Numbered from the stretch's first letter, positions 5,966-31,630 are shown. The stretch: 64,000 bases of DNA from Corallococcus exiguus (GCF_017302975.1 NZ_JAFIMT010000003.1); one strand, 5' to 3'. The notes: generated by a model not told the origin, from the sequence alone. Numbers and translations: made by a program.

Positions 5966-6020
5966 GGACCAGACACTCCGCGCCCCACCCGCGGCGTCCC
6001 TCCCTCCCCACTCCCATTCC

Positions 6021-6040
6021 GAGACGTCTCAATGCGAGAC
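6021..6040. promoter_or_regulatory. GAGACGTCTC palindrome plus GTCTC-AATGC-GAGAC motif in a divergent promoter region between two GT1 genes
   Basis: Located between divergent genes (5965 minus / 6112 plus); instance 1 of GTCTC-N5-GAGAC. Confidence 0.55.
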
Positions 6041-6111
6041 ATCCGGGCCGTGAATCAGCAAGGAGGCTGCTCGCGGGGAGGCATGTCCCCTGCAAGCGGC
6101 TGGGCCTGCCC

Positions 6112-7305
6112 GTGAGAGTCACCGTCCTCACCAACCTGTACCCTCCCGACGTCCTCGGCGGCTACGAACTGCTCGCACGGGATGTGGTGGAGGGGTTGGA
6201 GCGGAGCGGCCACGAGGTCGATGTCCTCACCAGCGGCGATGGCTCCGAGAACGGGCGCGTGCTGCGGACCCTGTGCCTGGCTCGCCGCTTCGGCTGGCCC
6301 GCGGGGAGGGATCGCCTCCGACACTTCGTGGCCGGTGTGCGGAACATGGCGGCGGTGCGCCGCTACCTGAAGGTCCGTGGCAGGCCGGACGCGGTGCTGG
6401 TCATGAGCCTGCGGAGACTGGGGCTCGCTCCGCTGCGAGTGCTCCAGGAGGCAGGCGTCCCAGCTATCGTCACGGTGAACGACGACTGGCCGGTGGCGTT
6501 CAGCGTGGGGCGCGACGCGCCGCCCTGGGCCCGGCTGGGTGGCGTCATCGACTCGCTGGTGGTGCCTTCACGAACTTGGAGCGGCATCCAACCCGCAGGG
6601 GTCGCGTGGCTTTCGGACGCGGTCCGGCGCACGTGCCTCGCGGCGGGTGTGCCGCTGGACTTCGGTGTCGTGCGGCCGCAGGGCGTGGACCTGTCACGCT
6701 TCACCCCACGTCCCTTCCGGCCCATGCGCCCGGAGCCTCGGCTACTCTTCGTCGGCCGGCTCCATCCGAGCAAGGCCCCCGATGCAGCCATCGACACCCT
6801 GGCTTCCTTGGAGAAGCGCGGCGTCCAGGCCACCCTCACGCTCGCGGGCGCGGCGGACGATCCCGCGTACCTCACGTCCTTGCGGCAACGGGCGCGGGGC
6901 CTGCGGGTGGACGGACGCGTGGCATGGGCCGGGCAGCTGCCCCGCGAGCAGTTGCTTCCGCTGTATCAGGACGCGGATGCACTCCTGTTCGCGTCGAAGC
7001 TGGAGCACGAGGGCCAGGGCCTCACGTACCTGGAGGCCATGGCCTGTGGCCTGCCGGTGGCGGCGTCCCCCAGCGGCGGGGCTCGCGACTTCCTCGAGCG
7101 GCACGATGCTTCCCTGCTGGTGAAGGCGTGCACGGGTGAAGCGTTCGCCGAGGCGCTGGCGGCCCTCCACCGGGACGCGGCGGCGCAGGAGGTGCTCGTC
7201 CAGCGGGCGCTCGACATCGTGAGGGAGCACGCGTCACTCGACGCCTACGTCCGCGGCATCGAGGGGCTGCTACTCGATGGGGCTCAAGCTCACTGCCTCC
7301 GCTGA
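6112..7305 (+). CDS. Glycosyltransferase family 1
   Basis: VRVTVLTNLYPPDVLGGYE N-terminus typical of GT1; FASKLEHEGQGLTYLEAMACGLPV E-x7-E region. Start placed at in-frame GTG 6112 (divergent from the gene ending/starting at 5965); the ORF-track start 5797 would overlap the neighbouring gene. Confidence 0.7.
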   Translation: MRVTVLTNLYPPDVLGGYELLARDVVEGLERSGHEVDVLTSGDGSENGRVLRTLCLARRFGWPAGRDRLRHFVAGVRNMAAVRRYLKVRGRPDAVLVMSLRRLGLAPLRVLQEAGVPAIVTVNDDWPVAFSVGRDAPPWARLGGVIDSLVVPSRTWSGIQPAGVAWLSDAVRRTCLAAGVPLDFGVVRPQGVDLSRFTPRPFRPMRPEPRLLFVGRLHPSKAPDAAIDTLASLEKRGVQATLTLAGAADDPAYLTSLRQRARGLRVDGRVAWAGQLPREQLLPLYQDADALLFASKLEHEGQGLTYLEAMACGLPVAASPSGGARDFLERHDASLLVKACTGEAFAEALAALHRDAAAQEVLVQRALDIVREHASLDAYVRGIEGLLLDGAQAHCLR

Positions 7306-7451
7306 CCCACGCTCGCATCCGAATGCCCGATCCGCAGGCGCGGCCTCGACATAAGAAACTTCTGCGCGGTGCGCGCTCAAACTCACTGCCTCCGCAGCAC
7401 CACCCGCTGACCGACGCTCGCGTCCGCGTTCCCGCTCCGCAGGCGCTGCTC
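7282..7451. repeat. Imperfect direct repeat of about 70 bp spanning the 3' ends of convergent GT1 (plus) and GT2 (minus) genes
   Basis: GCTCAAGCTCACTGCCTCCGC..TGACCCACGCTCGCATCCG..CCGCAGGCGC at 7282-7345 versus GCTCAAACTCACTGCCTCCGC..TGACCGACGCTCGCGTCCG..CCGCAGGCGC at 7375-7451. Confidence 0.6.
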
Positions 7452-8276
7452 TCCCCACTGGTGTCCCTTCCAATAAGCCCAGTGGTACACGAGTCTCCGG
7501 GGAACGGAGAGCGCCAGGCCCGCGGCATCTCGCGCCCGGATGTGCGCGACCGCATCCCTTGCCAATGATGCACCCAGCTTCCGGGCCAGACCTGTCAGCG
7601 ACGCGGCGTCCTCGCGGATGAAGGCATCCGCCTCCCCTTCGATGAAGCGGCGCCCGTACAGCTGTTTCAGCGTGTAGTTGTGCGAATGCATCACCCACGC
7701 GTCCGGCACGTAGCGCACCCGGAGCCCGTGGCCTCGCGCCCGGTGTCCCCACTCCGTGTCCTCGGAGCCCCATGCGTCCTCGTAGAACGGGTGCTGGAGC
7801 CACGCCTCCCGCGTCATTGCCGCGAACGGCAGCGAGTACGTCATCCATGGCGGCGGCGCTCCCTGCTCCGGGAATGCCACCTCGTAATCCCTTCGCACCC
7901 ACGTGTGCGCTTCGGGCCTCGGCAGCTGCCGCGCGAAGGTCGCGTCCGCCTCCGCGCGCTCGATGGGCTCCAGCAACCGGTCCAGCGCCTGCGGCGTCAG
8001 CGGCACCACGTCGGAGTTCTGGAAGACGATGATGTCGCCTTGCGCTTCGCGGATGGCTCGATTGAGCACCACGCCCGGGAAGTACGCCCCGGCGTCGATG
8101 CGGATCAGCTTGCAGGGGAAGCGCGAGACGATGTCCAGCGTCGCGTCCCTGGAGCCCGAGTCCACCACGAGCAACTCGAAGTCCTTGCGCGCCTGCGAGA
8201 ACAGGCCGGAGAGCGCCTGGCCTATGACCCAGGCCGAGTCCTTCGAGCGCATGATGACGGTGACCTTGCGACTCAT
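7383..8276 (-). CDS. Glycosyltransferase family 2
   Basis: MSRKVTVIMRSKD..LLVVDSGSRDATL..GAYFPGVVLNRAIREAQGDIIVFQNSDVV (GT-A fold motifs). ATG at 8276 overlaps the upstream gene stop (ATGA). Confidence 0.75.
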   Translation of the reverse strand: MSRKVTVIMRSKDSAWVIGQALSGLFSQARKDFELLVVDSGSRDATLDIVSRFPCKLIRIDAGAYFPGVVLNRAIREAQGDIIVFQNSDVVPLTPQALDRLLEPIERAEADATFARQLPRPEAHTWVRRDYEVAFPEQGAPPPWMTYSLPFAAMTREAWLQHPFYEDAWGSEDTEWGHRARGHGLRVRYVPDAWVMHSHNYTLKQLYGRRFIEGEADAFIREDAASLTGLARKLGASLARDAVAHIRARDAAGLALSVPRRLVYHWAYWKGHQWGEQRLRSGNADASVGQRVVLRRQ

Positions 8277-9481
8277 GGATGATCCCCCAAGCGCAGGCCG
8301 AGCTTCCTCGCCACGTGCGCGAAGTTGGGGTCGCCCGACTCGCCCCAGTACCTCAGATATGCGCGCCGCAAGGCCGCTGGCTCGCGGTTCGCGGCTCCCA
8401 GCAGTTGCCGCGCGAACTCGGCGTCCCGGGGCTCGCCCACTTCGAACGCCACGAAGGGGAACGCCGCCGCCAACACCCCTCGCGGCCCTCCGAGCCTCAG
8501 CCCCAGCCGCGCTCGGAGCCCCAGCTCGGGTGAAGCCTTTGGCTGGAACCTCACGCCGTTGCGCACCCGTCTCAGCCAGACCTTCGGATGGAGGCCGCCC
8601 TCCTTGAGGGAGTGTTTCAATGCCCGCTCCGCGTATCCGGACCACCTCAGCCCGGGCACTGACAGCCTCGCGGCCTCACACGTGAGGTGCACCTCCGCGA
8701 GCCTCGCTCTCCCCTCGTCCATCCAGGGCCCCAGTTCGCATGGGGCGAAGCGCGCGTAGTCTGGCTCCAGACGGAAGGCGCTCGCCTCGTCGTACAGCTT
8801 GCGGAACGCGGCCGGCACATCGTGCCTCAGCGCCATCCGCCGCCGCTTCTCCGCGTAGCTCCAGTCGTATGCCCCCAGGAAGTACAGCAGCGCGTCGCCG
8901 TAGCCGATGATGGCCTTCGCCGTGTGCCGGATGATGGTTCGGCGCGCGTCCTCATCCGGCGCACCCTGGTCTCGCAGCACCTGGTTGATGATCAGCAGCG
9001 TCCCCCGGTTCACCGCCAGGTTCCGCACGTCGTCGGGTGGGATGGCTTCTCGCGTGAAGTGCTCGAGCCCCGGCAGGAACGACGCATCCCCCGCCACCGT
9101 CTTGTGGCCGAACCGCATGTCGTACCAGATGACCTGACACGGGGACCTCCGCAGCGCCCGCACCGTCGTCACGCCCAGGTCCAATCCCAGCCCGTGCCGC
9201 TCGCGCAGCGGCTCCAGCGCCAGGTCCAGTCGCGCCTTCAGCCCCTCTCGCGGGGCTCGCTCCAGCACCAGGAGGAAGTCGAGGTTGTTGTGCGGCCTTT
9301 CGACTCCGTCCCGCCTCTCCACTCCTCCCTCACCACGCCCGTAGCCGCCAATGAGGGCCAGCGTCCGCAGTTCGTCCGGGCGCACGTGCCCGTGGACGAT
9401 GGCCGCCGCTTCGGCCACCACCTGGGAGATCCTCGCCTCCACCTCGGGCGAGCCCTTCAACGTGAAGCGTCCGTCCCTCAC
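8273..9481 (-). CDS. Hypothetical protein with nucleotidyltransferase-like motif
   Basis: LIGGYGRGEGGV..DLDFLLVLE resembles the GlnD/GlnE-type NTase G[GS]-x9-13-Dh[DE]h motif. GTG start overlaps the upstream stop (GTGA). No further family assignment possible by eye. Confidence 0.45.
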   Translation of the reverse strand: MRDGRFTLKGSPEVEARISQVVAEAAAIVHGHVRPDELRTLALIGGYGRGEGGVERRDGVERPHNNLDFLLVLERAPREGLKARLDLALEPLRERHGLGLDLGVTTVRALRRSPCQVIWYDMRFGHKTVAGDASFLPGLEHFTREAIPPDDVRNLAVNRGTLLIINQVLRDQGAPDEDARRTIIRHTAKAIIGYGDALLYFLGAYDWSYAEKRRRMALRHDVPAAFRKLYDEASAFRLEPDYARFAPCELGPWMDEGRARLAEVHLTCEAARLSVPGLRWSGYAERALKHSLKEGGLHPKVWLRRVRNGVRFQPKASPELGLRARLGLRLGGPRGVLAAAFPFVAFEVGEPRDAEFARQLLGAANREPAALRRAYLRYWGESGDPNFAHVARKLGLRLGDHP

Positions 9482-10665
9482 GCCGCCTTCCCTCCCGCTC
9501 CCGCCACCGACTCCAGCAGCGTCAGGAGGCGCGTCACGTGCCGCTCGGGGACGAAGCGCTCCTCGTAGGTCCTTCGCGCGTGCGCCTCCATCGTCCTCCT
9601 CTGGTCCGGCGCCGCCATCAACCTATCGATCGCCTCCGCCAGCGCCTCCGGATCGTTTGGCGGCACGCCCAGCCCCGTCTCGCCTTCCTTCAGCCACTCC
9701 CCCACTCCGCCCACTCGGCTGGCGATGACCGGCGTCCCGTGCGCCAGTGCTTCGATGCCCACCAGTCCGGACGTCTCCGGCGCTCGGCTGGGGAAGACGA
9801 CGCATGCGGCCCGCCGGTACTGCTCGGAGAGCGATTCGGGCGCCATCGGGCCCAGGAAGGCCACTCGCTTCGACAACCCCAGCCCGTCCACCTTCGCGCG
9901 CAGCTCCTCCTCCTGCCGGCCCCGTCCCACCACCGCAAGGCGGCACGGCTGCGTGGTGCGTGTCAGCGCGTGGAACAGTACGTCCAGACCCTTGCCCGTC
10001 GTCAGCTGCCCTACGAACAGGAGCAGGTCCTCTTCTCGGTCCACTGGCACCCGAGGCTGGAGCGGGGCTTGCGCGTACAGCGGGATGACGTGCGTCCGCT
10101 CGCGTGGGAAGCCATGCTCCGCCACGTGGTCCGCCATGTACCGCGAGCCCACCACGAAGGCGTGATGACTCCGGGCCAGCGCCTGCTCCTCCCGCAACCT
10201 CCCCAGCGAGGCCCACTTCAGCCCGGGCCAGTCGTCTGAACGGCCCACGAAGCCGAGACATGGGTAGCAGGCAGCGCCCACCGGCTTCGTGCAGGGCTCC
10301 TTTCCCAGCGTCGTGTACTTGTGCTCGCGCAGGCAGAACAGCCGGTGGTCGTGGAAGAAGCGGACCACCGGCGCTGGCGAATCCACCAGCGCGCGCTGTG
10401 CCTTCAGGCTCGCGAGCTGATGCACGTAGACGACGTCCGGCGCCAGCTCCCTCAGCTGTCGCGCCAGGTCCACGATGGGGAAGATGCCCTCGAACGGCTC
10501 CCGCATCACCGGGTGCGGATCCGGCGAGACGTTCACGTCGTAGAAGAGCAGCGACGTCACTCCCCGCCTGCCCAGCTCCCTCGCGGTCTCCCGCACGTAG
10601 CGCTCGGCGCCACCTACGGGGGTAGCGGCGTCGTTGAGCCATGCGACCCTCAAGCCGCGGCCCAT
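9478..10665 (-). CDS. Glycosyltransferase family 1
   Basis: MGRGLRVAWLND.. N-terminus, C-terminal FPSRAPETSGLVGIEALAHGTPVIAS E-x7-E region. Start ATG 10665 lies 12 nt after the upstream stop at 10650. Confidence 0.75.
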   Translation of the reverse strand: MGRGLRVAWLNDAATPVGGAERYVRETARELGRRGVTSLLFYDVNVSPDPHPVMREPFEGIFPIVDLARQLRELAPDVVYVHQLASLKAQRALVDSPAPVVRFFHDHRLFCLREHKYTTLGKEPCTKPVGAACYPCLGFVGRSDDWPGLKWASLGRLREEQALARSHHAFVVGSRYMADHVAEHGFPRERTHVIPLYAQAPLQPRVPVDREEDLLLFVGQLTTGKGLDVLFHALTRTTQPCRLAVVGRGRQEEELRAKVDGLGLSKRVAFLGPMAPESLSEQYRRAACVVFPSRAPETSGLVGIEALAHGTPVIASRVGGVGEWLKEGETGLGVPPNDPEALAEAIDRLMAAPDQRRTMEAHARRTYEERFVPERHVTRLLTLLESVAGAGGKAA

Positions 10666-11873
10666 GGCGGTCTCCCGTCCGGGTTCGTCTCCCCTTCCAG
10701 ACCCAGCATCGCGATCACCCATCCGGCCACGTCCATCAGCGCGCCACGGTCCTGGGGCAGCGGCGCATCCGAGGCGATGGCCGCATACGCCGAGGGGCTG
10801 TCCACGTCGTAGCCGTGCATGCCTCGCACCTGGCCCCCCACGAAGCTGGGGGCGAACAGGGCTCCCTCCCGCAGCACGAAGAGGGCTTGTCCGTAAGGCG
10901 CCCCCCGCACGGGCGCCTGTCGCTCCACCAGCGCCTCCTCGTCCAGCCATCGGCCCGGGAGCCCGTGCGCCACCATCCGCTCGCGGGCCTTCTCGCGCGT
11001 CCGCTCATCACCCCAGACCCGCAGCATCGTGCTGTCCACGAACAGCCGCGTGCCTCGCAGCTCCCCGAGCATCCGTCGTGGATCCACCACTTCGTGGATG
11101 TCCGCCATTCCGTGGTCCCCCACCATCACCGTCGTCACGTCACCCCCGCCCGCGCGCATCGCATCCACCGTCTGTTCGATCCGCTCGGTGAGCCGCCGGG
11201 CTGTCGCGAGCGCGTCCTGGCTGCCGTTGCCCGTACGGTGCAGGGCTCCGTCCAGGGCGGTGGCGTACGCGAAGGCCAGGTCTGGCTTGCTCGTCCGTAA
11301 CACCGCGCAGGTGTGCGCCCAGCGCTCCTCCTCCGGCATCTGCCACGGTGCAGCGAACACCCGCAGGCCCGCGCGCCTCGCCCTCGTGAGGAACGTCTCC
11401 ACCCCGCCGATGCGCTCGGCCTTGAACAGGTCCTCCCGCTCCGGCAGGTCGAGCCAGCGGAACAGCTCCGGTGGGACGCGGTACAGGTCCACGTACCCGG
11501 TCAGCCCCTCCGTCCTCTTCAGCACCCGCGCAGCCGCACGCCTCAGCATGCCCCGCTCATGCACCTGGCGCGGCAGCAGCCCCAGCCACCTCAGCGGCGA
11601 CAGCACGCCTTCGTCCTCTCGCTCCGCGTGCGCGAAGAGGCACATCCGCCCATGCCGCTCCGGCGGCGCGCCGGTGAGGATCGTCGGCAGGGCGCCACAT
11701 GAATAGCCGAGGATGCCGCGCAGGCGGCCCCGGTGCGGCAACCCACGCAGCCCTTCGAAGGTCTCCAGCTGGGACGGGCCCAGCGCATCTACGAAGACCA
11801 CGAGTACACGACGCGGCCGGATGGGCCGTGCTCCGGCGCTGTCTCCTCGTGATGTCGTCTCTTCCCGGGACAT
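10650..11873 (-). CDS. Alkaline-phosphatase-superfamily protein (type I phosphodiesterase / nucleotide pyrophosphatase-like)
   Basis: VLVVFVDALG near the N-terminus and VMVGDHGM metal-binding motif typical of ENPP/AlkP-fold enzymes. Confidence 0.6.
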   Translation of the reverse strand: MSREETTSRGDSAGARPIRPRRVLVVFVDALGPSQLETFEGLRGLPHRGRLRGILGYSCGALPTILTGAPPERHGRMCLFAHAEREDEGVLSPLRWLGLLPRQVHERGMLRRAAARVLKRTEGLTGYVDLYRVPPELFRWLDLPEREDLFKAERIGGVETFLTRARRAGLRVFAAPWQMPEEERWAHTCAVLRTSKPDLAFAYATALDGALHRTGNGSQDALATARRLTERIEQTVDAMRAGGGDVTTVMVGDHGMADIHEVVDPRRMLGELRGTRLFVDSTMLRVWGDERTREKARERMVAHGLPGRWLDEEALVERQAPVRGAPYGQALFVLREGALFAPSFVGGQVRGMHGYDVDSPSAYAAIASDAPLPQDRGALMDVAGWVIAMLGLEGETNPDGRPPWAAA

Positions 11874-11879
11874 GGTTCT

Positions 11880-11894
11880 GTCTCAATGTGAGAC
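11880..11894. promoter_or_regulatory. GTCTC-AATGT-GAGAC motif in a divergent region (phosphodiesterase / co-polymerase genes)
   Basis: Instance 2; 7 bp upstream of the minus-strand gene ATG at 11873. Confidence 0.55.
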
Positions 11895-11999
11895 GGGCTC
11901 CGAGCGCTCCCGCCGTCAGCGACGGTGTCTGACATTGCAAGAGCTCCGCCACCCGCTCCCATCCAGGCTGGCATCCACCGTGCAGCCGGTCCGCACTGG

Positions 12000-13859
12000 A
12001 TGTTCTCGCTGGAAGAGGGCCCGGAGCCCGAAACGCAGACGGCGCTCGTGCGACAGGAGTCGGTGCACTCCGGGTATCCCGTTGATCCCCTGCGCATCGC
12101 GCGGGTGCTGCGGCGCCGCTGGCGGATCATCGCCGGGTGCTTCGTCGCGGGGATCGTCCTGGGCGTGCTGCTGGCCAAGACCGTGATGCCCCGCGAGTTC
12201 ACCGCTCGTACCATCCTCGTCTGGGAGCCCACGGGCTCGCGCGCGGCGGCGAACCCCGAGCGGGAGATCCAGACGCTGATGGACACGCTCAAGCTCCCCA
12301 ACAACCTGGAGGCGCTGCGCATGCGCACGGGCCTGCCGGTGACGCTGGAGGCTCTGGCCCGGCGGGTGGACATCGCCGTGGCCCGCGGCTCCAACATCCT
12401 CACCCTCTCCGCGACCGCAGCGAGCCCCGAGGAGGCGGTCCGGCTCTCCGACGCCATGACCCAGGTGTTCCTGGACCATCAGCGGGACTCGGAGCGGACG
12501 CGGGCCGAGGCACAGCTGAAGGCGCTGGGCGAGGAGGTGCTCAAGGTCCAGGCGCAGCTGGAGGAGGCCCGGGCGCGCTACGACGGCTTCCGCCAGGAGA
12601 ACGGCATCGCGGAGCTCACGCTCGACCGGCAGTCCTTCATCGAGGAGGCGGCGCGGCTGCGCACCGAGAAGAACCGCTTCCGCATCGAAGCGGAGTCCTC
12701 GGACGCCAGGGCGCTGTTGCTGAAGCAGGCGGCTCGCGAGCAGCCCAGCCGGATGGTGCTGTCGGAGACCGAGAGCTACTTCGAGCTGCGCAAGCTGGCC
12801 GAACTGCGCGCGGAGCTCGCCGCCCGCGGAGCAAATCTCTCCATGGAACATCCCGAGGTGGTGCAGCTCACCGCCGCCGTGCGGGCCCTGGAGTCCCGGC
12901 CCGCGGGTGGCACCGTCTCCGACCGCGTCGTGGGGACCAACCCCTCCTGGACCTTCCTCCAGAACAGCCTGCTGGACGCCGGCTCGCAGCGGGAGCTGGC
13001 CCAGAAGAAGTGGCGCGCCTACGCCGAGGCGGAAGAGGCCGCGAAGGAGCGCATCACACGGCTGTCCGCACTGGAGGGCCAGGCCAGTGCGCTGCTCGCG
13101 CGGATCCACATCACCGAGACTCGCCTCACCGAACTCCAGCAGCGTCAGAAGGTAGTGGAGGGCGAGGTGCGCCAGCCCGCGATGGAGCTGCGCGTGCTCA
13201 CCTCCGCCACGCCGCCGACGCGTCCCTCGAAGTCCTATCGCCGCGCGGTGGCCCTGCTGCTGCCTCCCTTCTTCGCGCTGCTGGCCGTGGTGGCGCTCAC
13301 CGCTTCCTCGCTGCGCGGCTTCAAGCTGTGGACGCCGGCCGAGTTCTCGTTCTGGGGAAGCGGCCCGGTGGTGGCCGCCACTCCCTGGCCCGCCACCGCT
13401 GAAGGCCTGGAGGAGCTCGTCGTGGAACTCCGGGCCGCGCTGGACGCGGCGAGCGGCGTGACGCGGGTGTTACCGCTCGGGGAAGCGCAGCAGGAGCGGA
13501 CGCGGGAGCTGCTGTCCCGGCTTGGGGCAACGGACGTCCCAGCGCGGGATGACGTCCCGGGACGAGGCGCGACGCTCGTTTCGTGGGAGGAGGCGCGGCG
13601 TCCGCAGGCGCTGCGTCTCGCGGTCCGCAAGGGGGCTCGGGTGCTCGTCCTCGCCAGCTCCGGCGCGCACTCCGTGTTCGAGATGTGGGCGCTGCGGCGG
13701 CTGCTCGGGAGCGAGGCTTGCGTTGGCTTCGTGGTGGTGGGGCTCGGCACCGACCTTGCTACCCATCCGGATCGCGTGGGCGACGTCATGGGCTTCTGGT
13801 CCGGCTCCGGAGCGTCGAGGGGCATGGAAGGGCCCTTCCCGCGAAAGGAGCCGCGCTGA
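12000..13859 (+). CDS. Polysaccharide co-polymerase (Wzz/Wzc-like chain-length determinant) lacking a tyrosine-kinase domain
   Basis: TM1 (IIAGCFVAGIVLGVLL), long coiled-coil periplasmic region, TM2 (AVALLLPPFFALLAVVAL), no Walker A in the C-terminal domain. ATG at 12000 (MFSLEEG); the ORF track begins at GTG 11925. Confidence 0.65.
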   Translation: MFSLEEGPEPETQTALVRQESVHSGYPVDPLRIARVLRRRWRIIAGCFVAGIVLGVLLAKTVMPREFTARTILVWEPTGSRAAANPEREIQTLMDTLKLPNNLEALRMRTGLPVTLEALARRVDIAVARGSNILTLSATAASPEEAVRLSDAMTQVFLDHQRDSERTRAEAQLKALGEEVLKVQAQLEEARARYDGFRQENGIAELTLDRQSFIEEAARLRTEKNRFRIEAESSDARALLLKQAAREQPSRMVLSETESYFELRKLAELRAELAARGANLSMEHPEVVQLTAAVRALESRPAGGTVSDRVVGTNPSWTFLQNSLLDAGSQRELAQKKWRAYAEAEEAAKERITRLSALEGQASALLARIHITETRLTELQQRQKVVEGEVRQPAMELRVLTSATPPTRPSKSYRRAVALLLPPFFALLAVVALTASSLRGFKLWTPAEFSFWGSGPVVAATPWPATAEGLEELVVELRAALDAASGVTRVLPLGEAQQERTRELLSRLGATDVPARDDVPGRGATLVSWEEARRPQALRLAVRKGARVLVLASSGAHSVFEMWALRRLLGSEACVGFVVVGLGTDLATHPDRVGDVMGFWSGSGASRGMEGPFPRKEPR

Positions 13860-13938
13860 GAGGAAGACGCCTTCGCGCGCGTCATCACAGGGCTGCCCTC
13901 CGTCCGGCGGGCCCCCCAGGAACGGAACCGACGACACC

Positions 13939-14871
13939 ATGTTCGCCGTCATCCATCGCAGCGCCGCGGCTCCTGGCGCCGGGTTCCTGTCCGTGGCCGG
14001 GCCCCCGCTCGTCACCCGCCAGTTGCAGTGGCTGCGCGCGTCGGGCTTCGAGAAGGTGGCCATCGACATCGGCGCGGACGCCCATGGAGAGGAGCTGCGC
14101 AGCCTCATCTCTCAGCAGGAGGCGCTGGCCCGCAACGTCATCTTCGTCCCCACGGCCTCGCTGTTCCCGCCGGGCGTCATCGCGGACTCGGCGGGCTTTC
14201 CCGCCCACGCGCCCTTCCTCGTGGTGCCGGACACCGTCCTGGGCAACGCGGACCTCGCGGCCTTCTACCGACGGGCGCCAGAGCGGGGCGTGCGCGTGGG
14301 CCGACTGACGCCACCCCCGGCCGTGGAGCCCTTCGCGCCAGCCGAGGTGCACCTGATCACCGCGGCCACCGGTCCCGTCACGGAGGAGGAGCTGCCCGGG
14401 TGGGGCGCGCGCCTGGAGACTCCGGGCGCGGCCCTGCGGCTGGCCTGCAAGGCGCTGCTGGGGCGGCTGCCGCGGGCGGAAGGAACCTCACGGCTCCTCA
14501 TCCACGCGGCCGAACGGGCACCAGGGGTCTGGGTCGCGCGCGGCGCACTCCTCCAGCGCGGCGCCGAGGTGAACCCTCCGGTGCTCATCGGTCCCCAGGC
14601 GCTCGTGTGCGCCGGAGCGCGCATCGGACCGGGGGCCCTCATTGGAGCGCGCGCCATCATCGAGCGCGGCACCCGTCTGGTGAACGCCGTGGTGGAAGAG
14701 GAGACCGTGGTCGGCGAGGGCCTGGAGGTGCGCGATGCCATCGCCACGCCCGACGGACTGGCCTCGCTGGAGGGCACCGGTCCCCTGCTCCCGCTGGGAG
14801 ATCCCCTGTTGCTGGCGCGGCGCCGGCTCCTGTCGCGAGCGGCGTTGCGCCTGCTGGGGCTCTCCCGATGA
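13939..14871 (+). CDS. Sugar nucleotidyltransferase-like protein with C-terminal hexapeptide (LbH) repeats
   Basis: ATG 13939 (MFAVIHRS..) after the upstream stop; N-terminus weakly NTP-transferase-like; C-terminal hexapeptide repeats (LIGPQALVCAGARIGPGALIGARAIIERGTRLVNAVV). Confidence 0.5.
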   Translation: MFAVIHRSAAAPGAGFLSVAGPPLVTRQLQWLRASGFEKVAIDIGADAHGEELRSLISQQEALARNVIFVPTASLFPPGVIADSAGFPAHAPFLVVPDTVLGNADLAAFYRRAPERGVRVGRLTPPPAVEPFAPAEVHLITAATGPVTEEELPGWGARLETPGAALRLACKALLGRLPRAEGTSRLLIHAAERAPGVWVARGALLQRGAEVNPPVLIGPQALVCAGARIGPGALIGARAIIERGTRLVNAVVEEETVVGEGLEVRDAIATPDGLASLEGTGPLLPLGDPLLLARRRLLSRAALRLLGLSR

Positions 14872-14897
14872 CGGCGCCTCGCGCACCGGGGAGCGTG

Positions 14898-16313
<1,416 letters not shown>

Positions 16314-16414
16314 GGTTTCGGGTCTCCTGACAGGGGGATGCGCTTGACGGGAGCTCGCCTCCGGTCCCGGTGATGCGCGAGGCCGGGCACTCGCACATCG
16401 GAGTACGCGGGACA

Positions 16415-16572
16415 GCAAACGCATCCGTTTGCACAGACCATTCCCGCATGTCGAGACATCCCCTCTGGTTGATCCGGATGCGCTCGGCCAACGACTTGTC
16501 CTCTGGCCTGTTTGACAAATCCCGCCGTTGTCTACGTTTGAGACATCCCGGCGTCCCCAGATGAGACATCCC
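16415..16572. promoter_or_regulatory. Regulatory region upstream of the NtrC-like gene: GCAAACG-CATC-CGTTTGC palindrome, three direct GAGACATCCC repeats and GTCTA-CGTTT-GAGAC
   Basis: Palindrome at 16415-16432; GAGACATCCC at 16453, 16540 and 16563; GTCTA-N5-GAGAC at 16530-16544; lies between divergent genes (16313 minus / 16664 plus). Confidence 0.6.
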
Positions 16573-16663
16573 GTTTCGGGACGCAGACAGGCCTGCGGCG
16601 ACCTGACACGCACCGGCAGCGCGTGCGACGCCATGGTTCCTGCCTTGCAAGCGGCAGCCGCCC

Positions 16664-17218
16664 ATGCGTGCGTCAGCGAAGTCAATCCATGCCTGCATGG
16701 AGCCGTTGCGCGCCCTGCGTTCGGACGGGGCTCGGGTGGTGGATGCGGTCAGGGACCGGGGGGCGCGCTTTCCCAGAGCCGCGGCCCTGGCGGATCCATC
16801 CTTATGGGCGGTGGGCCTGCTGCGGTGGGGGGCGGTGCTCCGGCGCGGACTGGGCACTTCACTGGGCCTGTCCACGCTGTTGCGCGTGGGCTTCCACATC
16901 GATGTGTGGACGGATGATATCGGCCCCGGCCTGAGGCTGCCGCACCCCTTCAACATCGTCATTGGCGATGGGGTGGAGATTGGCCCGGAGTGCACCCTGC
17001 TCCACGGCGTCACCGTCCAGAGGGGCGCGGGCACACGCATTGGCCGGGGCGTGGTGCTGGCCAACGGGACGACGGTGCTGGCGGGAGCGTCCGTGGGCGA
17101 CGGGAGCCTGGTGGGTGCGGCCAGCGTGGTGCGCGGAGACATTCCCCCTGCGTCCGTGGCGGTGGGCGTACCCGCGCGCGTCGTGCGGGCGTCCCGTCCC
17201 GGGGAGGCGGCTCCGTGA
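16664..17218 (+). CDS. Serine-acetyltransferase (CysE/LacA) family O-acetyltransferase, hexapeptide repeat
   Basis: IDVWTDDIGPGLRLPHPFNIVIGDGVEIG..GVPARVV closely parallels the CysE catalytic left-handed beta-helix. Alternative start MEPLRAL at 16694. Confidence 0.7.
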   Translation: MRASAKSIHACMEPLRALRSDGARVVDAVRDRGARFPRAAALADPSLWAVGLLRWGAVLRRGLGTSLGLSTLLRVGFHIDVWTDDIGPGLRLPHPFNIVIGDGVEIGPECTLLHGVTVQRGAGTRIGRGVVLANGTTVLAGASVGDGSLVGAASVVRGDIPPASVAVGVPARVVRASRPGEAAP

Positions 17219-18357
17219 GGCTGGCCGTCGCGTTGGGGGGAACGGATTGGGGGCGCTCGGGCATTGGCACGTATGTGCGTGCGATGCTGCCCCGGCTGAC
17301 ACGGGGGCTTGCGCGAACCGGGGGCCGGCTGGTGGCACTCGGCACGGCGCGGGACTTCGCCGCGTATGACCCGGAGCTCGTGGGCGCGGAGCGCGCGGTG
17401 GCACCGGCCGTCGTCGACACGCCCGCGCTGGGTGCATCTTGGTACCTCGCCCGCTGCGGAGCGCACGCGCGCGGGGCCGGAGCGGACGTGCTGCTGCTGC
17501 CCGCCGCCAATCGCCGCGTCGCGCTGCGGCCCGGCCTGCCCACGGTGGGCGTGGTGCACGACCTGGCCCAGTTCAACGTGCCGGACAAGTACGACCGGCT
17601 GCGCACCACCTACGTGAGATGGCTTCTGCCCAAGGCGCTGAGGTCCTTCGAGGCACTGGCTGCCGTCAGCCAGGCCACCCGCGGGGACATGGTGAGCTTC
17701 CTCTCCTGCGCGCCCGAGCGGATCCACGTCATCCCCAACGGCGTGGACGCGGACCGCTTCGCGCTCGGGGACGGCGCTGGTGCCGCGTGGGCCCGTGAGC
17801 GGCTGGGTTTGAAGGCGCCGTATCTGCTGTACCTGTCGCGACTGGAGCACCCGGGGAAGAACCACTTGCGGCTGCTGCGGGCCTTCGCCGCGTCCCCGGT
17901 GCGGGAGGACCATCAGCTGGTGCTGGCCGGCGCGGATTGGGGCGCCGAGCAGCTCATCCGGGAGGAGCTCCAGCGGCTGGGGCTCCAGGAGCGCGTGAGG
18001 ATCCTGGGCTACCTGGAGGACGGCCTCATCCCGGGCCTGGTCGCGGGCGCGGAGGCCCTCATCGCGGTGGGGCTGTGCGAGGGCTTCGGCCTGCCAGCGC
18101 TGGAGGCCATCGCGGCGGGAAAGCCCGTGCTGGCGGCCCGGGCGGGTGCGCTTCCGGAGGTGGTGGGCGAGCTGGGGGTGTTGTGCGATCCGCTCGACGA
18201 GCGGGACATGGCGGCGGCTCTGACGCGGGTGGTGCGGGATGAGCCACTGGCCGAGCGGGTGCGTCGCGAAGGGCCCGGGCACGCGCGCCAGCGCAGCTGG
18301 GACCGCACGGGCGATGATCTGCTGGCCTTGTGCCGCGCCGTGGGAGGCGTTCGATGA
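17215..18357 (+). CDS. Glycosyltransferase family 1
   Basis: GTG 17215 overlaps the upstream stop (GTGA); VRLAVALGGTDWGRSGIGTY N-terminus; GLCEGFGLPALEAIAAGKPVLA E-x7-E region. Confidence 0.75.
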   Translation: MRLAVALGGTDWGRSGIGTYVRAMLPRLTRGLARTGGRLVALGTARDFAAYDPELVGAERAVAPAVVDTPALGASWYLARCGAHARGAGADVLLLPAANRRVALRPGLPTVGVVHDLAQFNVPDKYDRLRTTYVRWLLPKALRSFEALAAVSQATRGDMVSFLSCAPERIHVIPNGVDADRFALGDGAGAAWARERLGLKAPYLLYLSRLEHPGKNHLRLLRAFAASPVREDHQLVLAGADWGAEQLIREELQRLGLQERVRILGYLEDGLIPGLVAGAEALIAVGLCEGFGLPALEAIAAGKPVLAARAGALPEVVGELGVLCDPLDERDMAAALTRVVRDEPLAERVRREGPGHARQRSWDRTGDDLLALCRAVGGVR

Positions 18358-19346
18358 AGGCTCCCCTCCCCCGAGCCCCGCTGCGAGACGTCCTGCGCGG
18401 GCGCGCTCCGCTGGTGGGCGCGCGCTTCAACGAGGTGCTGCCGCGCGGCTACCTGTCGCCGGTGGAGGCACGGTGGCTGCTCGGCCTGCCCTATGGCGAC
18501 CTCGCCGCCGAGGAGGCGCGCTATCTCCAGGGCCGCACCCCCGCGACGGACTTCGGCGTGATGTTGCGCACGTCGGTGGCTCGCGCGTTGGCACCGCCCG
18601 AGAGCGCCCAGCCCGAAGTGCGCCCATTCATCGTCTCCGCGCGCGTGGACAACCTCACGCTCGAACAGGCGGTGGAGCAGCTCTTCACGCAAGGACAAGG
18701 CGGCCGCGCGAAGCTGGTGTCCATCGTGCACCCGCACGCCTTGAACCTGGCGGCGCGCGACGTGGCGCTCGCGCGGGCGCTGGCGGAAGCGGACATGGTG
18801 CTGCCGGATGGCATTGGCATCCGAGTGGGCGCGGCGCTGCTCGGCGTGGCCATGCGCCACAACCTCAACGGCACGGACCTGTTGCCGCTGCTCTGCAAGC
18901 ACGCACCCGCGCGAGGCTGGCCCGTGGTGCTGGTGGGGGCGGCCCCCGGCGTGGCGGAGGCTTGCGCTGAGAACCTGCGAAGGGCCCACCCGGGCCTGGA
19001 GCTCCCCATCGTCTCGCACGGCTTCCTCACCGCCGCTGGCTCCCGCGCGCTGGCGGAGTCCATCTCACGGCTGGGCCCCTGCCTGGTGCTGGTGGGCATG
19101 GGCAGCCCCCGGCAGGAGCTGTGGGCGCGCGAGTACCTCTCTGGAGCCTCGCAGGCCGTCATCCTCACGGTGGGAGGGCTGTTCGACTTCTACTCGGGCC
19201 GGATCCAACGCGCGCCCATTGCCTGGCGTGAGCTGGGCCTGGAGTGGATGTATCGCCTGCTCCAGGAGCCCCGCCGGATGGCCGTCCGCTACCTGCTGGG
19301 CAATCCGCTCTTCCTGCTCCGCATCCTCTGGCAGAAGCTGCGGTAG
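18354..19346 (+). CDS. WecB/TagA/CpsF-family glycosyltransferase (GT26)
   Basis: ATGA overlap with the upstream gene; LPDGIGI.. and LVGMGSPRQELW motifs typical of WecG/TagA. Confidence 0.7.
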   Translation: MKAPLPRAPLRDVLRGRAPLVGARFNEVLPRGYLSPVEARWLLGLPYGDLAAEEARYLQGRTPATDFGVMLRTSVARALAPPESAQPEVRPFIVSARVDNLTLEQAVEQLFTQGQGGRAKLVSIVHPHALNLAARDVALARALAEADMVLPDGIGIRVGAALLGVAMRHNLNGTDLLPLLCKHAPARGWPVVLVGAAPGVAEACAENLRRAHPGLELPIVSHGFLTAAGSRALAESISRLGPCLVLVGMGSPRQELWAREYLSGASQAVILTVGGLFDFYSGRIQRAPIAWRELGLEWMYRLLQEPRRMAVRYLLGNPLFLLRILWQKLR

Positions 19347-19349
19347 GCC

Positions 19350-20852
19350 TCAGGGTGCGTACGTCGGCACCTCGCTGCCCACCGGAGTGGATGCAGCCGC
19401 CGCGAGGCGTGCATCCCGCCGCCACCAGACGAGCAGCGCCATCCCGGTCCCCAGCAGCGTGACGAGCGCGCAGATGCACGCGCTTCCGAACGGGCCTCGC
19501 GAGGCGAAGGGAGCGAGTCCCCAGCCCACGACGAATGACACGAGGCCCGCGGCTCCGACCGGGGCCAGTGCCCAGAGCACCTCCCGGACGGTCCACTGGA
19601 CCAGGGCGCGGACCTTGCGCCAGACGAGCACGGCGATGACCCCGTTTCCGAGGACGGTGCCTCCGGCGACGGCCCACGCACCGGCGTACCTCACCCCGGC
19701 CATGGAGACGGCGACGTTGAGCGCGTGGCCGATGAGCACCGGGTGGGTCAGGTGCCACGGCGTCTCACCGCTCACGGCCAGGGCCGAGGACGCGCTCTCC
19801 TCCGCGGCCGCGATGATGGCCGCTGTGCCCAGGAGGACGACCGCGAGCATGGTGACGGAGTCGTGCGCGAGTGCGCCCACCCAGGCCTCCAGCAGGGCGG
19901 TGCCATCCAGGGCCAGCGCGATGACACCGCTGGAGGCCAGGCCGCCCAGAAGGGCCGTGCCGAGGCGCAGCGCGCTGGAGCGGTGCCGGGCATCTCCGAG
20001 GCGATGGATGAGCCATCCACCCGCTTGTTTCGCGAAGGCGAGGATCTGCTCCACTGCGCGGGAGGCCACCTGATACGCGCCCACCGAGCTCAGGGACGCG
20101 GAGCGGGTCAGGATGAGGACATCCGCTCGGACCGCCGCCGCGATGCCCACGTTCATGGCCAGGGCCGCGGCGCCCTGCCGGAACGCGCTGCGCACCTGGG
20201 CCGGATCCGCCGGCCATCCAGGACGCAGCGAGAGGTGCGGGTCGATGCGCCTGGACACCGCCGCGAGGAGCAGGAGCTCCAGCGTGGCTCCCGCGAACAG
20301 CCCCAGCGCCGGCGCAAGCAACGAGCGCGTGGTGCCGAGCACCGCCGCCGTCAACGCAATCTGGGTCGCGGCTCCGATGGCGCGCGCCCAGGCGAGCGAG
20401 GTGTTGGCGCCCCGCATCAGCAGGAACGCTCGCAACGGTGCCACCAGCGAGCCCGCGAGTCCCGCCGCGAGGACCGGAAGCGCGGCGCGGGCCACGTCCG
20501 CGCGCAGCGCTTCGGACGCGGACGGGAGGTGGAGGAAGAACACGTACGCACAGACGCAGAGACAGGGACAGACGAGCGTCACCACCAGCAGCGTGAGCCG
20601 GATGAGCTGGCGCGTGGCGGCATCGTCCGGTCTGGCCGCCGTGCGTTGGACCGCGATGCTGAGGCCCAGGTCCGACAACCCAAGGAGGAAGCCCGTCGTG
20701 CCAAGGACGCCCCAGGCGCCCAGACTCTCCGGACCGAGCAGACGCACCACCAGCGCGACCGTCGCCAGCCCCGTCACGATCTGCACCACATGCCGAGCGC
20801 ACGACGCGAGCACGTCGACGCTCATCCTCAGGAGCGATCTCTCAGGGGCCAT
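19350..20852 (-). CDS. Wzx-type polysaccharide flippase (MOP superfamily)
   Basis: About 12-14 hydrophobic segments across 500 aa; N-terminal region resembles the polysaccharide-biosynthesis (RfbX/Wzx) family. Alternative start MSVDV at 20825. Confidence 0.65.
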   Translation of the reverse strand: MAPERSLLRMSVDVLASCARHVVQIVTGLATVALVVRLLGPESLGAWGVLGTTGFLLGLSDLGLSIAVQRTAARPDDAATRQLIRLTLLVVTLVCPCLCVCAYVFFLHLPSASEALRADVARAALPVLAAGLAGSLVAPLRAFLLMRGANTSLAWARAIGAATQIALTAAVLGTTRSLLAPALGLFAGATLELLLLAAVSRRIDPHLSLRPGWPADPAQVRSAFRQGAAALAMNVGIAAAVRADVLILTRSASLSSVGAYQVASRAVEQILAFAKQAGGWLIHRLGDARHRSSALRLGTALLGGLASSGVIALALDGTALLEAWVGALAHDSVTMLAVVLLGTAAIIAAAEESASSALAVSGETPWHLTHPVLIGHALNVAVSMAGVRYAGAWAVAGGTVLGNGVIAVLVWRKVRALVQWTVREVLWALAPVGAAGLVSFVVGWGLAPFASRGPFGSACICALVTLLGTGMALLVWWRRDARLAAAASTPVGSEVPTYAP

Positions 20853-20899
20853 GCGCCCCTGACCATTGCAGCCGGTATGCCGGTGGACGAGGCGCTGGC

Positions 20900-21658
20900 T
20901 CAGCCCAGGGACTTCACGGCGCGGACGCCGATGACGACTTCGTAGTGGGGGTCATGCACGTCCAGGTCGGCGGTTCGCAGGTCCTCCCGGGCCAGGCCGT
21001 GCAGGGTCGCGACGGCGGCGCGGACGTTCCCGAAGGACTCCACCCACACGTTGCCGGGGCCGAAGGACTGCTCAAAGAGGCGGTGGACGGAGCGGGAGGT
21101 GAACCGCCAGCAGTCCGGCCACTGCTCCATCGCGCCCCAGTCCACCTTGATGATGCCGGGCACGGTCAGCAGCGCCACGCCGCCCGGCTGGAGGATGCGG
21201 TGCAGCTCCCGCACGGCGGCCTGGACATCGAAGACGTACTGCAACACCTGGGTGAAGAGGACGCAGTCGAACGCACCCGACGGGATGTCGACCGCGTGGG
21301 CGATGTCTCCCACGAAGGTGGCTTCCGGGTTCCCAGGAAGCGCGTGGAGGATGTCGGAGCGGGTGACACGGCTGGCGCCGAACCGCCGCGTGTAGCGCGC
21401 GTCCCCGACCTCCAGCGTTCTGCCCTGGACGTCGGCCGCGTGACGCTCCAGGAAGCGCTCGATGTAATAGCGATCAATAGGCTGGCCGCGGTCGTGTCCC
21501 CAGTGCGTGCCGATGGGCGTCTGACGCCCCAGGCTGCCCCACCGCACCCGCCCGCTGGAGACCTGGCGCTTGTGATGGGCCAGCCACTGATAGATGCCTT
21601 CGGGCACAACAGCCCGGAAGAGTCGCTTCGCCCCTGTGGGAGTCATTGGGCGATACAA
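20900..21658 (-). CDS. Putative SAM-dependent methyltransferase
   Basis: TLEVGDARYTRRFG glycine-rich region and LQPGGVALLTVPG resemble class I MTase motifs I and post-I/II; weak. Confidence 0.45.
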   Translation of the reverse strand: MYRPMTPTGAKRLFRAVVPEGIYQWLAHHKRQVSSGRVRWGSLGRQTPIGTHWGHDRGQPIDRYYIERFLERHAADVQGRTLEVGDARYTRRFGASRVTRSDILHALPGNPEATFVGDIAHAVDIPSGAFDCVLFTQVLQYVFDVQAAVRELHRILQPGGVALLTVPGIIKVDWGAMEQWPDCWRFTSRSVHRLFEQSFGPGNVWVESFGNVRAAVATLHGLAREDLRTADLDVHDPHYEVVIGVRAVKSLG

Positions 21659-21690
21659 TCAAACACAGCCACAGGGAGCAACTTCACCGG

Positions 21691-21715
21691 AACGTGTCTC
21701 GAATTGAGACACGTT
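21691..21715. promoter_or_regulatory. Perfect 10-bp-arm palindrome AACGTGTCTC-GAATT-GAGACACGTT (GTCTC-N5-GAGAC core); operator and/or terminator hairpin downstream of serC
   Basis: Lies in the 71-bp gap between the serC stop (21730) and the methyltransferase start (21658); no U-tract follows. Confidence 0.55.
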
Positions 21716-21729
21716 CGCCGGTGCGCGGG

Positions 21730-22818
21730 CTACCCGTTGCGCTTCGCGAAGTCGTCCATGAATGAGACCAGCGTCTTCACGTGATCCACGGTCACCGCGT
21801 TGTAGAGGGACACGCGGATGCCGCCCGTGATTCGGTGGCCCTTCATGCCCACCATGCCGGCCTTGGCGCCTTCGGCCACGAAGGCGTCCTCCAGCTTTTC
21901 GTCCGGCAGGCGGAACACGACGTTCATGTACGAGCGCGACGCCTTCTCCACCGGGGCCCGGTAGAAGCCCGCGTTGCGGTCGATGGCCTTGTACAGCAGG
22001 TCGCCCTTCTCGCGGTTCCAGGCCTCCACCTGCTTCAGGCCGCCCACTCCCTTGATCCACGAGAGCACGTTGCGGCAGAGGTAGATGGAGAAGGTGGGGG
22101 GCGTGTTGTAGAGCGAGTTGTTCTCCGCGTAGGTCGTGTAGCGGAAGATCTTCGGGATGTCCTTACGGCCCTTCGCCATGAAGGACTTCTCCACCAGCAC
22201 CAGGACGATGCCTGACGGCCCGATGTTCTTCTGGGCTCCGGCGTAGATGAGCGCGAAGCGGCTCACGTCGATGGGCTTCCACAGGATGTCGGAGCTCATG
22301 TCCGCCACCAGCGGCACCTGCCCCACTTCCGGGAACGTGTGCCATTGCGTCCCGAAGAGCGTGTTGTTGCTCGTCATGTGGACGTAGGCGGCCTTCGGGT
22401 CCAACTGGAGCTCGGCCTGGGTGGGGACGCGCGTGAAGCGCTTGTCCTTGTCCACCGTGTTCGCGGCGATGCGCGGCGTGCCGTAGTAGCGAGTCTCGTC
22501 CACCGCCTTCTCGCTCCAGCCTCCCGTCACCACGTAGTCCGCGGAGCCGCCCTGGGGCATGAAGTTCATGGGCACCTGCGCGAACTGCTGCGAGGCGCCG
22601 CCCTGGAGGAAGAGGATCTCGTGGGTGTCCGGAACGGCCAGCAGCTCCTTCACGAGGGCGATGGTCTCGTTGTGGACGGCCTCGAACGCCTTGCCCCGGT
22701 GGCTGTGCTCGATGATCGACATCCCCGTGCCCTGGAAGTCGAGCAGCTCGTCCCGGGCCCGCTCCAGCGCTGCCGTGGGGAGACCGGCCGGGCCGGGATT
22801 GAAGTTGATGACGCGCAT
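21730..22818 (-). CDS. serC: Phosphoserine aminotransferase
   Basis: [40 protein letters not shown].. collinear with SerC. Start ATG 22818; the ORF-track 5' extension is not coding-like. Confidence 0.9.
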
Positions 22819-22861
22819 GGCAGTGTCCTCTGGCAAGTGAACCGCCCCGGCATTCTCGCCG

Positions 22862-31599: not shown

Positions 31600-31630
31600 C
31601 GTCCCTCGCGCTGATGGTGCGGGGGGGACC

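Follow-up and report, generated by a model that had tools for sequence, protein, structure and literature searches.

Myxobacteria carry dozens of NtrC-type activators, and to our knowledge few of these proteins have been matched to their DNA sites and target genes. In enteric bacteria, NtrC sites at glnAp2 have the form TGCACC-N5-GGTGCA, with at least two sites located ~100-140 bp upstream of the -24/-12 promoter. Among the myxobacterial proteins, PexR was shown experimentally to bind tandem upstream activating sequences (UAS) of the form CACCG-N6-CGGTG at the sigma-54 promoter of M. xanthus katB (PMC12754779). Nla28 of M. xanthus instead uses tandem, imperfect repeats of the 8-bp half-site CT(C/G)CG(C/G)AG with variable spacing, and intragenic sigma-54 promoters have also been documented in this species (both PMC9765219). 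The M. xanthus eps locus encodes the NtrC-like regulator EpsI/Nla24, on which its expression depends; the DNA site of this protein was left undefined in that work (PMC4877007). Here we describe a palindromic motif, GTCTC-N5-GAGAC, that recurs within a polysaccharide cluster in a 64,000-nucleotide stretch of Corallococcus exiguus DNA (NZ_JAFIMT010000003.1; hereafter the window, ~70% G+C). We consider it probable that this motif is a UAS bound by an NtrC-family activator encoded in the cluster, and that both belong to an autoregulated sigma-54 regulon of this Wzx/Wzy-type polysaccharide cluster.

Occurrence and conservation of the palindrome

A first-pass annotation of the window had reported four instances of the motif, and all four are recovered by pattern search. 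Three are exact (6026-6040, 11880-11894 and 21696-21710), and the fourth (16530-16544) carries one mismatch. The same one-mismatch search adds sites at 11857-11871 and 16553-16567, each located exactly 23 bp from a stronger site; these two and a third degenerate site at 16568 extend the original list. Exact matches are expected 0.14 times in dinucleotide-preserving shuffles of the window, and none of the 100 shuffles contains three. The pentamer GAGAC/GTCTC is scarcer in the window than expected (144 observed versus 191 +/- 14), so the paired copies stand out more and cannot be put down to a common word. The shortage itself could stem from codon bias or restriction avoidance. The word GAGACATCC occurs four times in the window, with three of these copies inside 16453-16571.

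A weight matrix was trained only on sites from other genomes, with none from the window, and its consensus is RTCTC(A/g)-N3-(T/c)GAGAY. This matrix scores the four originally reported sites at 12.2-24.3 bits, and these are the only window matches of at least 12 bits (random sequence yields 1.07 +/- 0.73). There are no strong matrix matches in the 41 kb outside the cluster, to which the motif is confined. The refined consensus is RTCTCA-N3-TGAGAY, often arrayed.

To compare the sites between genomes, syntenic loci were collected. A contig scan with the chain-length (PCP) protein of the cluster gave only two Corallococcus loci, and a wider sample was obtained through homologs of the activator and exact-protein contig look-ups, one of which found nothing. 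The resulting nine loci come from two Corallococcus species (L001, L002), Pyxidicoccus xibeiensis (L003), Corallococcus sp. CA041A (L005), Cystobacter fuscus (L006), two further assemblies (L004, L007), a JGI metagenome contig (L008) and a Polyangia metagenome-assembled genome (MAG; L011). Sites are present in all nine, and their cores are kept at orthologous positions while the flanking DNA diverges. The GTCTC-N5-GAGAC palindrome is therefore real and conserved across myxobacterial genera. Conservation of this kind, the lack of which the annotation had named among the conditions that would refute its proposal, supports its suggestion that a common dimeric transcription factor controls the polysaccharide locus.

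The alternative that the sites form a chance cluster, or are a dispersed repeat resembling repetitive extragenic palindromes or miniature inverted-repeat transposable elements and devoid of a regulatory role, appears highly improbable. High-GC genomes are rich in short palindromes, and a metagenome scan for two contiguous sites yielded 89 matches, approximately the number expected by chance for a collection of that size. None of the 89 lies beside an activator ortholog or other genes of the cluster. However, a chance cluster is difficult to reconcile with the shuffled sequences or with cores that persist in several genera while their flanks change, and there are no shared flanking repeat arms and the distance to the promoter is fixed.

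Sites, promoters and the activator gene

Candidate sigma-54 elements were identified as GG-N10-GC sequences resembling TGGCAC-N5-TTGCA and then filtered for a real gene start downstream, which retains four promoters: 5971-5956(-), 11969-11984(+), 16634-16649(+) and 20882-20867(-). These and the element at 16445-16430(-), which faces the activator gene, are exact GG-N10-GC elements that match 7-9 of the 11 positions of the consensus TGGCACG-N4-TTGCW, and other genera have them in the same places with respect to start codons. Transcription starts are predicted at ~5945(-), 11995(+), 16419(-), 16660(+) and 20856(-). Site centres in the window are located at -72 to -141 from the predicted starts, within the ~70-150 bp upstream (usually with at least two sites) sought for activator dyads, and the nearest sites are centred 72-108 bp upstream. 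Across ten loci the proximal site is mostly at -84 to -111. Exceptions to this geometry are site D, the B sites relative to the promoter at 11951(-), and extra sites at -64 (L007) and -44 (L011). Locations ~70-130 bp upstream of predicted sigma-54 starts point to an enhancer (UAS) layout rather than to repressor operators, and the label 'operator-like' given to these sites in the annotation is thus misleading.

The activator gene begins at GTG 16313, which is not the first start codon of its open reading frame (ORF) but is preceded by a GGAGA ribosome-binding site and is conserved in relatives. This start defines a divergent intergenic region at 16314-16663, and the sites at 16530-16582 are consequently outside of coding sequence, as had been claimed for the instance upstream of the NtrC-like regulator. 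Array C in this region consists of C1 (16530-16544, GTCTACGTTTGAGAC), C2 (16553-16567, GTCCCCAGATGAGAC) and C3 (16568-16582, ATCCCGTTTCGGGAC), with a lone GAGAC nearby at 16453-16457. On one side is the sigma-54-type promoter of the acetyltransferase/GT4/WecG operon (16634-16649(+), TGGTTC-CTGCC-TTGCA, TGGTTCCTGCCTTGCA), which ends 14 nt before ATG 16664. On the other is the sigma-54-type promoter of the activator gene (16430-16445(-), GGGAAT-GGTCT-GTGCA, GGGAATGGTCTGTGCA), which matches 7/11 consensus positions and for which a pattern search returned one match against 0.02 expected by chance. Relative to the acetyltransferase promoter, C2 and C1 are centred at -100 and -123; relative to the activator's own promoter they would be at about -141 and -118. 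Located between two divergent sigma-54-type promoters, array C would drive both the operon and the activator gene, and the promoter on the activator gene implies autoregulation.

This arrangement is shared between genera. A five-genome alignment of the gap between the activator and acetyltransferase genes contains only four conserved blocks, namely the activator ribosome-binding site, the two facing GG-N10-GC elements and the site array, and the same layout is found in the Cystobacter locus, two further assemblies and the metagenome contig. The activator's own promoter is thus a conserved block of the alignment, and it has equivalents in L006-L008. In all of L001-L008 the activator gene is divergent from the acetyltransferase gene, a sigma-54-type element immediately precedes the acetyltransferase ATG, and an RTCTC-N5-GAGAY array lies upstream of that element; L011 has no called acetyltransferase gene upstream of its activator. 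In all nine loci that cover this region, the promoter has the form TGGTTY-N5-TTGCA or TGGAAC-N5-TCGCA, and the centre of the proximal site is at -84 to -111 in 8 of 9 loci, with L007 carrying the further one-mismatch site at -64. Array C of L001 comprises four contiguous 15-bp units (GAGACATCTCAATCC). Perfect array-C sites are present in L003, L004, L007 and L008, and those of L003 and L004 are perfect where the window is degenerate.

Site A (6026-6040, GTCTCAATGCGAGAC) is an exact match scoring 21.9 bits. An extra half-site, GAGAC at 6021-6025, creates the GAGACGTCTC junction at 6021-6030 that had been described as a palindrome fused to this site. The centre of site A is at -88 from the start predicted for the sigma-54-type promoter of the GT4 glycosyltransferase gene (5956-5971(-), TGGTCC-ATGAA-TTGCG, TGGTCCATGAATTGCG), which ends 14 nt before ATG 5941. 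Both L005 (at 18533) and Pyxidicoccus (L003, at 19162) retain the site, centred at -88 or -87 in these two loci and the window. In Pyxidicoccus the GT4 promoter has the same element (TGGTCCGCGAATTGCC) and the same 14-nt gap to ATG 19260. There the divergent neighbour is replaced by a co-directional gene, yet the site and its downstream promoter remain together. A weaker sigma-54-like element faces the divergent GT4 gene of the window (6079-6094(+), AGGCAT-GTCCC-CTGCA, 8/11 consensus positions, 17 nt to GTG 6112), and site A would be at -72 from its predicted start. This element is found elsewhere only in the near-identical strain L005 and has candidate status.

Site B1 (11880-11894, GTCTCAATGTGAGAC) is also an exact match (24.3 bits). 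The phosphodiesterase-like gene begins only 6 nt away, at ATG 11873, and L001-L005 likewise have the site immediately ahead of this gene's start codon. Site B2 (11857-11871, GTCTCTTCCCGGGAC) carries one mismatch, lies 23 bp from B1 and overlaps the first codons of the same gene. It is kept as ATCTCATTCCGGGAC in L001-L004, and its conservation could come from coding sequence. The centres of B1 and B2 are at -108 and -131 from the predicted start of the PCP promoter (11969-11984(+), TGGCAT-CCACC-GTGCA, TGGCATCCACCGTGCA), which ends 15 nt before ATG 12000. L001-L005, L007 and L008 share this promoter, at best with 10/11 consensus positions. A short ORF lies ahead of the PCP gene in L001-L004, and there the promoter stops 14 nt short of the ORF's ATG. 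Both this short ORF and the gene for Wza, a member of the OPX family, are lost from the window at 11895-11999 and from strain CA041A, with a short remnant of the Wza 3' end left behind, and this loss brought B1 to -108 of the PCP promoter. In two other loci, sites precede a promoter of the phosphodiesterase-like gene itself. L007 has a site centred at -90 from the promoter of this gene, and L011 has three sites at -116, -94 and -44 before the promoter CGGCATCGCCCATGCA.

The activator (471 amino acids) carries the Pfam domains Response_reg, Sigma54_activat, AAA_lid_14 and HTH_8. It has Walker motifs and a Fis-type helix-turn-helix (HTH), and its GAFTGA motif, through which such activators contact sigma-54, is invariant in the alignment; a GAFTGA loop and a DNA-binding domain are what would be sought in a cognate AAA+ activator. 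Its best match is 98% identical and comes from Corallococcus sp. CA041A; its closest solved relatives are Aquifex NtrC1/NtrC4 and ZraR. Assignment to described equivalogs of NCBIfam failed for NtrC (GlnG; ntrC model 389.2 versus a cut-off of 558.6 bits) and for the PEP-CTERM regulator PrsR (PEP_resp_reg 346.2 versus 502.6), and the activator reached no NCBIfam equivalog cut-off. No other regulatory gene accompanies the sites throughout the nine syntenic loci, and on this ground the activator is provisionally named as the binding factor. Co-inheritance of activator and sites is evidence, but not proof, of binding. Two paralogous activators (L009, L010; 51-53% identical), which reside in other gene contexts with no such sites nearby, also favour this assignment. 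From these data we infer that the activator is the binder, that the promoters use sigma-54 and that regulation is positive.

Alternative explanations and the proposed regulon

Several observations, in addition to the metagenome scan, weigh against this assignment. The sigma-54 calls rest on 8-9/11 consensus positions plus conservation, and the window contains 62 such matches, most of them by chance. B1 and B2 abut a start codon and are located downstream (+38 and +61) of one candidate promoter, the sigma-54-like element that faces the phosphodiesterase-like/glycosyltransferase operon (11936-11951(-), TGGCGG-AGCTC-TTGCA). This element is conserved in L001-L005, but the stretch corresponds to the 3' coding end of Wza in L001, L002 and L004, which makes its conservation ambiguous and perhaps coding. 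Likewise, the Wza stop codon falls within B1 of L004 and B2 extends over N-terminal codons, and the conservation of these sites may be partly coding. The sigma-54-type promoter of the Wzx-like flippase gene (20867-20882(-), CGGCAT-ACCGG-CTGCA, CGGCATACCGGCTGCA) is located just downstream of the methyltransferase stop codon, 14 nt before ATG 20852, and is conserved in L001-L005 with gaps of 12-14 nt. The window has no motif site within 300 bp of it, and site D is ~815 bp upstream. Finally, paralogs with no sites close by have almost the same recognition helix (GRATLYRR) as the activator. An attempt to tie the activator to the motif through its HTH sequence failed for this reason.

Site D (21696-21710, GTCTCGAATTGAGAC) also fits poorly. 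It is an exact match (24.1 bits) located 50 bp before the methyltransferase ATG (21646), and inspection of the window sequence between these two features revealed no GG-N10-GC element. The perfect palindrome that the annotation described around it is present, although its length is 27 bp (11-bp arms and a 5-nt spacer) and not 25 bp. The site is embedded in a hairpin-forming palindrome (21685-21723) that begins 7 nt after the aminotransferase stop codon, with a folding energy of -26 kcal/mol (z -4.3). A strong hairpin is also present in the close strain L005, although its outer stem differs. In L001 and L002 the core is conserved without the long stem, at -94 from the start predicted by a methyltransferase promoter element, CGGCAT-N5-TTGCC. 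The role of site D is thus less clear than that of the other sites, and it may have two roles or exert a long-range effect on the flippase promoter, 815 bp distant.

The features of site D raise the question of whether the palindromes act as RNA hairpins, in termination, transcript stabilisation or masking of ribosome-binding sites, rather than as protein-binding DNA. The strength and placement of the D hairpin and the position of B1 just before a start codon would suit such a function, which we nonetheless regard as quite improbable. With z-scores of -0.6 to -2.4, the weak 5-bp stems of A, B1 and C are unremarkable, the D sites of L001 and L002 retain the 5+5 core while losing the long stem, and upstream arrays of contiguous 15-bp units would be untranscribed under the proposed regulatory model. 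No Rfam families were found in 1-24000. Site D was also considered as an intrinsic terminator and rejected, since its strong hairpin is not followed by a run of T (U in the transcript) and a terminator scan calls none at any of the sites.

The main rival is a different dimeric regulator, a repressor or a sigma-70-type activator encoded elsewhere, for which the motif would be the operator; in that case, the association with sigma-54-type elements would be coincidental or a sign that two factors regulate the genes together. This is unlikely in our judgement, but several of the difficulties above are what it would lead one to expect. For example, B1 and D are placed 6 nt and 50 bp before start codons as suits a repressor or class I activator, no sigma-54 element follows D, and the HTH of the cluster's activator is not distinctive among its paralogs. 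In contrast, among regulators only the cluster's activator is syntenic with the sites over all nine loci, and the extracytoplasmic function (ECF) sigma factor and Ser/Thr kinase that flank the cluster in the window are absent from the other loci. A scan of 5000-23000 detected no sigma-70-type promoter, and the dominant layout, in which conserved GG-N10-GC elements are preceded by arrays at 70-130 bp, is that of an enhancer-binding protein.

We therefore favour the cluster-encoded activator as the protein that would act at these sites. According to the mechanism we propose, one activator dimer would occupy each 15-bp dyad, with dimers binding single sites or arrays centred ~70-130 bp upstream of transcription starts. 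Bound dimers would assemble into an active AAA+ ring, which would loop to RNA polymerase-sigma-54 at the -24/-12 promoters and open them using ATP. From array C (16530-16582), the activator would activate both the acetyltransferase/GT4/WecG operon and its own gene, resulting in positive autoregulation.

Two additional features may bear on how such a regulon operates. At four of the window promoters (5941-5971, 11969-12002, 16634-16666 and 20852-20882), 14-15 nt separate the promoter end from a conserved ATG, and this gap contains no Shine-Dalgarno sequence. L001-L007 share the layout. Among relatives, the acetyltransferase, GT4, PCP and flippase promoters are separated from the start codon by 11-14 nt and certain others by 16-26 nt, whereas L008 has a gap of ~50 nt. 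The short gaps predict 5' untranslated regions of no more than ~5 nt, and hence near-leaderless sigma-54 transcripts. The second feature concerns the receiver domain, in which residue 59, at the phospho-acceptor position, is Glu in the Corallococcus/Pyxidicoccus branch, namely in the window, Pyxidicoccus and two relatives (CLELVLDDM versus CLDLxLDDM), whereas the Cystobacter-type orthologs keep Asp. The equivalent phosphomimetic substitution in E. coli NtrC, D54E, is a known activating change, and the Glu residue may make this activator kinase-independent. A bolder and only tentative proposal is that the whole regulon is built for leaderless sigma-54 expression, with a kinase-independent Glu-receiver activator that is controlled by its autoregulated dosage or by a ligand such as cyclic di-GMP (c-di-GMP).

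Cluster content and comparison with described systems

A gene map of the window was made from Pfam and NCBIfam searches. The cluster is flanked by a Kelch-repeat protein gene (7-2391(+)); a gene of this type is also beside the cluster in Cystobacter fuscus (L006 6093-9155) and may belong to it. The first part of the cluster encodes a Wzy-like protein (2452-4164(-)), the two GT4 glycosyltransferases on either side of site A (4688-5941(-) and 6112-7305(+)), a GT2 glycosyltransferase (7383-8645(-), ORF coordinates), a 402-amino-acid protein without assigned function (8273-9481(-)), a further GT4 glycosyltransferase (9478-10950(-), ORF coordinates) and the phosphodiesterase-like protein (10650-11873(-)). 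These are followed by the Wzz/PCP-like chain-length protein (12000-13859(+)), whose start at ATG 12000 is confirmed by a conserved MFSLEEG N-terminus, a hexapeptide protein (13939-14871(+)) and the NtrC-family activator with its receiver (REC), AAA+ and HTH_8 domains (14898-16313(-)). Beyond array C are the serine-acetyltransferase-like hexapeptide protein (16664-17218(+)), a GT4 glycosyltransferase (ending at 18357(+)), a WecG-family transferase (18330-19346(+)), the Wzx-like flippase (19350-20852(-)), the methyltransferase (20900-21646(-)) and a class-V aminotransferase (21730-22962(-)). No OPX homolog was detected anywhere in the 64-kb window. In relatives (L004 14990-16409, L001 1330-2740), a short ORF and/or a Wza (OPX) gene is located between the PCP and phosphodiesterase-like genes; the short ORF is called STAS only in L011 and is STAS-like by position elsewhere. 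Two very long ORFs with high third-position G+C (31595-39709(+) and 50720-59896(-), ~2700 and 3060 amino acids) are located outside the cluster.

The metagenome scan also revealed the dyad in other genomic settings. A family of contigs with ~46% G+C carries arrays of GTCTCAANNTGAGAC within ~10-170 bp of perfect sigma-54 elements, TGGCACGGACCTTGCA and TGGCACGCTTCTTGCT (TGGCACG-N4-TTGC), which are closely apposed on opposite strands. One contig (L062, 5419-5612) has at least six copies of GTCTCAANNTGAGAC, and others of the family are L024, L032, L046, L059, L060, L066, L070 and L028. Genes near these arrays include a sigma-70-family gene and a GDP-mannose 4,6-dehydratase gene. Judging from these contigs, one or two unrelated ~46% G+C lineages pair the same dyad with predicted sigma-54 promoters independently, which speaks for the proposed reading. 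In a different contig (L068), a gene for a PAS-type activator with a different recognition helix ends next to the motif, a case that we consider uninformative. Tandem 15-bp arrays are also present in unrelated contigs (GAGACATCTCCTCGT in L087, 4250-4330; GAGACATCTCCACGC in L019, 1100-1170), and these may be coding repeats.

The literature was searched for the motif itself, EpsI/Nla24 sites, a regulator controlling the biosurfactant polysaccharide (BPS) cluster and leaderless sigma-54 transcripts, and none of the papers found describes the motif. Control by an enhancer and sigma-54 is well known, and the motif and its proposed regulon are a new example of it. The polysaccharide cluster, which is present in Corallococcus, Pyxidicoccus, Cystobacter and a Polyangia MAG, is itself uncharacterised. 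The analysis provides a testable candidate regulon from sequence alone, comprising a defined 15-bp site, five to seven promoters, a likely activator and a predicted autoregulatory loop, and it supplies exact probes and predicted transcription starts for experiments. It may also provide a further instance of the connection that generally exists between sigma-54 and polysaccharides of the cell surface (PMC3162934).

Among described systems, the regulator most similar in gene context is EpsI/Nla24, which has the same three-domain NtrC-family layout and is likewise encoded within a Wzx/Wzy exopolysaccharide cluster. We considered whether the locus is the M. xanthus eps locus itself, with a regulator and cluster orthologous to MXAN_7440 and the eps genes, and rejected this identity, as gene order differs and the models score below their cut-offs (EpsC 76.6 versus 150 bits; EpsA 107 versus 500 bits). 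Among the 120 activator matches listed, most of them without an organism name, none is attributed to Myxococcus, and the syntenic relatives that are named come from Corallococcus, Pyxidicoccus, Archangium and Cystobacter. Nla28 is another self-regulating myxobacterial activator with clusters of sites near sigma-54 promoters, some of them intragenic, but its sites lack the 5+5 inverted repeat of the motif described here.

Enteric NtrC shares the REC-AAA+-Fis-type HTH architecture, N5-spaced dyads and dimers that oligomerise from adjacent sites. It differs in half-site sequence, in its targets, which here are polysaccharide genes, and in the phospho-acceptor, which is Glu in this lineage; the protein here scores 389 bits against the NtrC equivalog cut-off of 558.6. 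PexR also differs from the system described here, both in its site (CACCG-N6-CGGTG versus GTCTC-N5-GAGAC), for which binding is demonstrated whereas here it is predicted, and in carrying a GAF sensor in place of a receiver domain and governing peroxide defence in place of polysaccharide synthesis. However, PexR is likewise a myxobacterial enhancer-binding protein that uses several tandem interrupted palindromes with 5-bp arms upstream of a sigma-54 promoter, and in both systems the regulator gene adjoins its known or proposed target, with the sites in the shared intergenic region.

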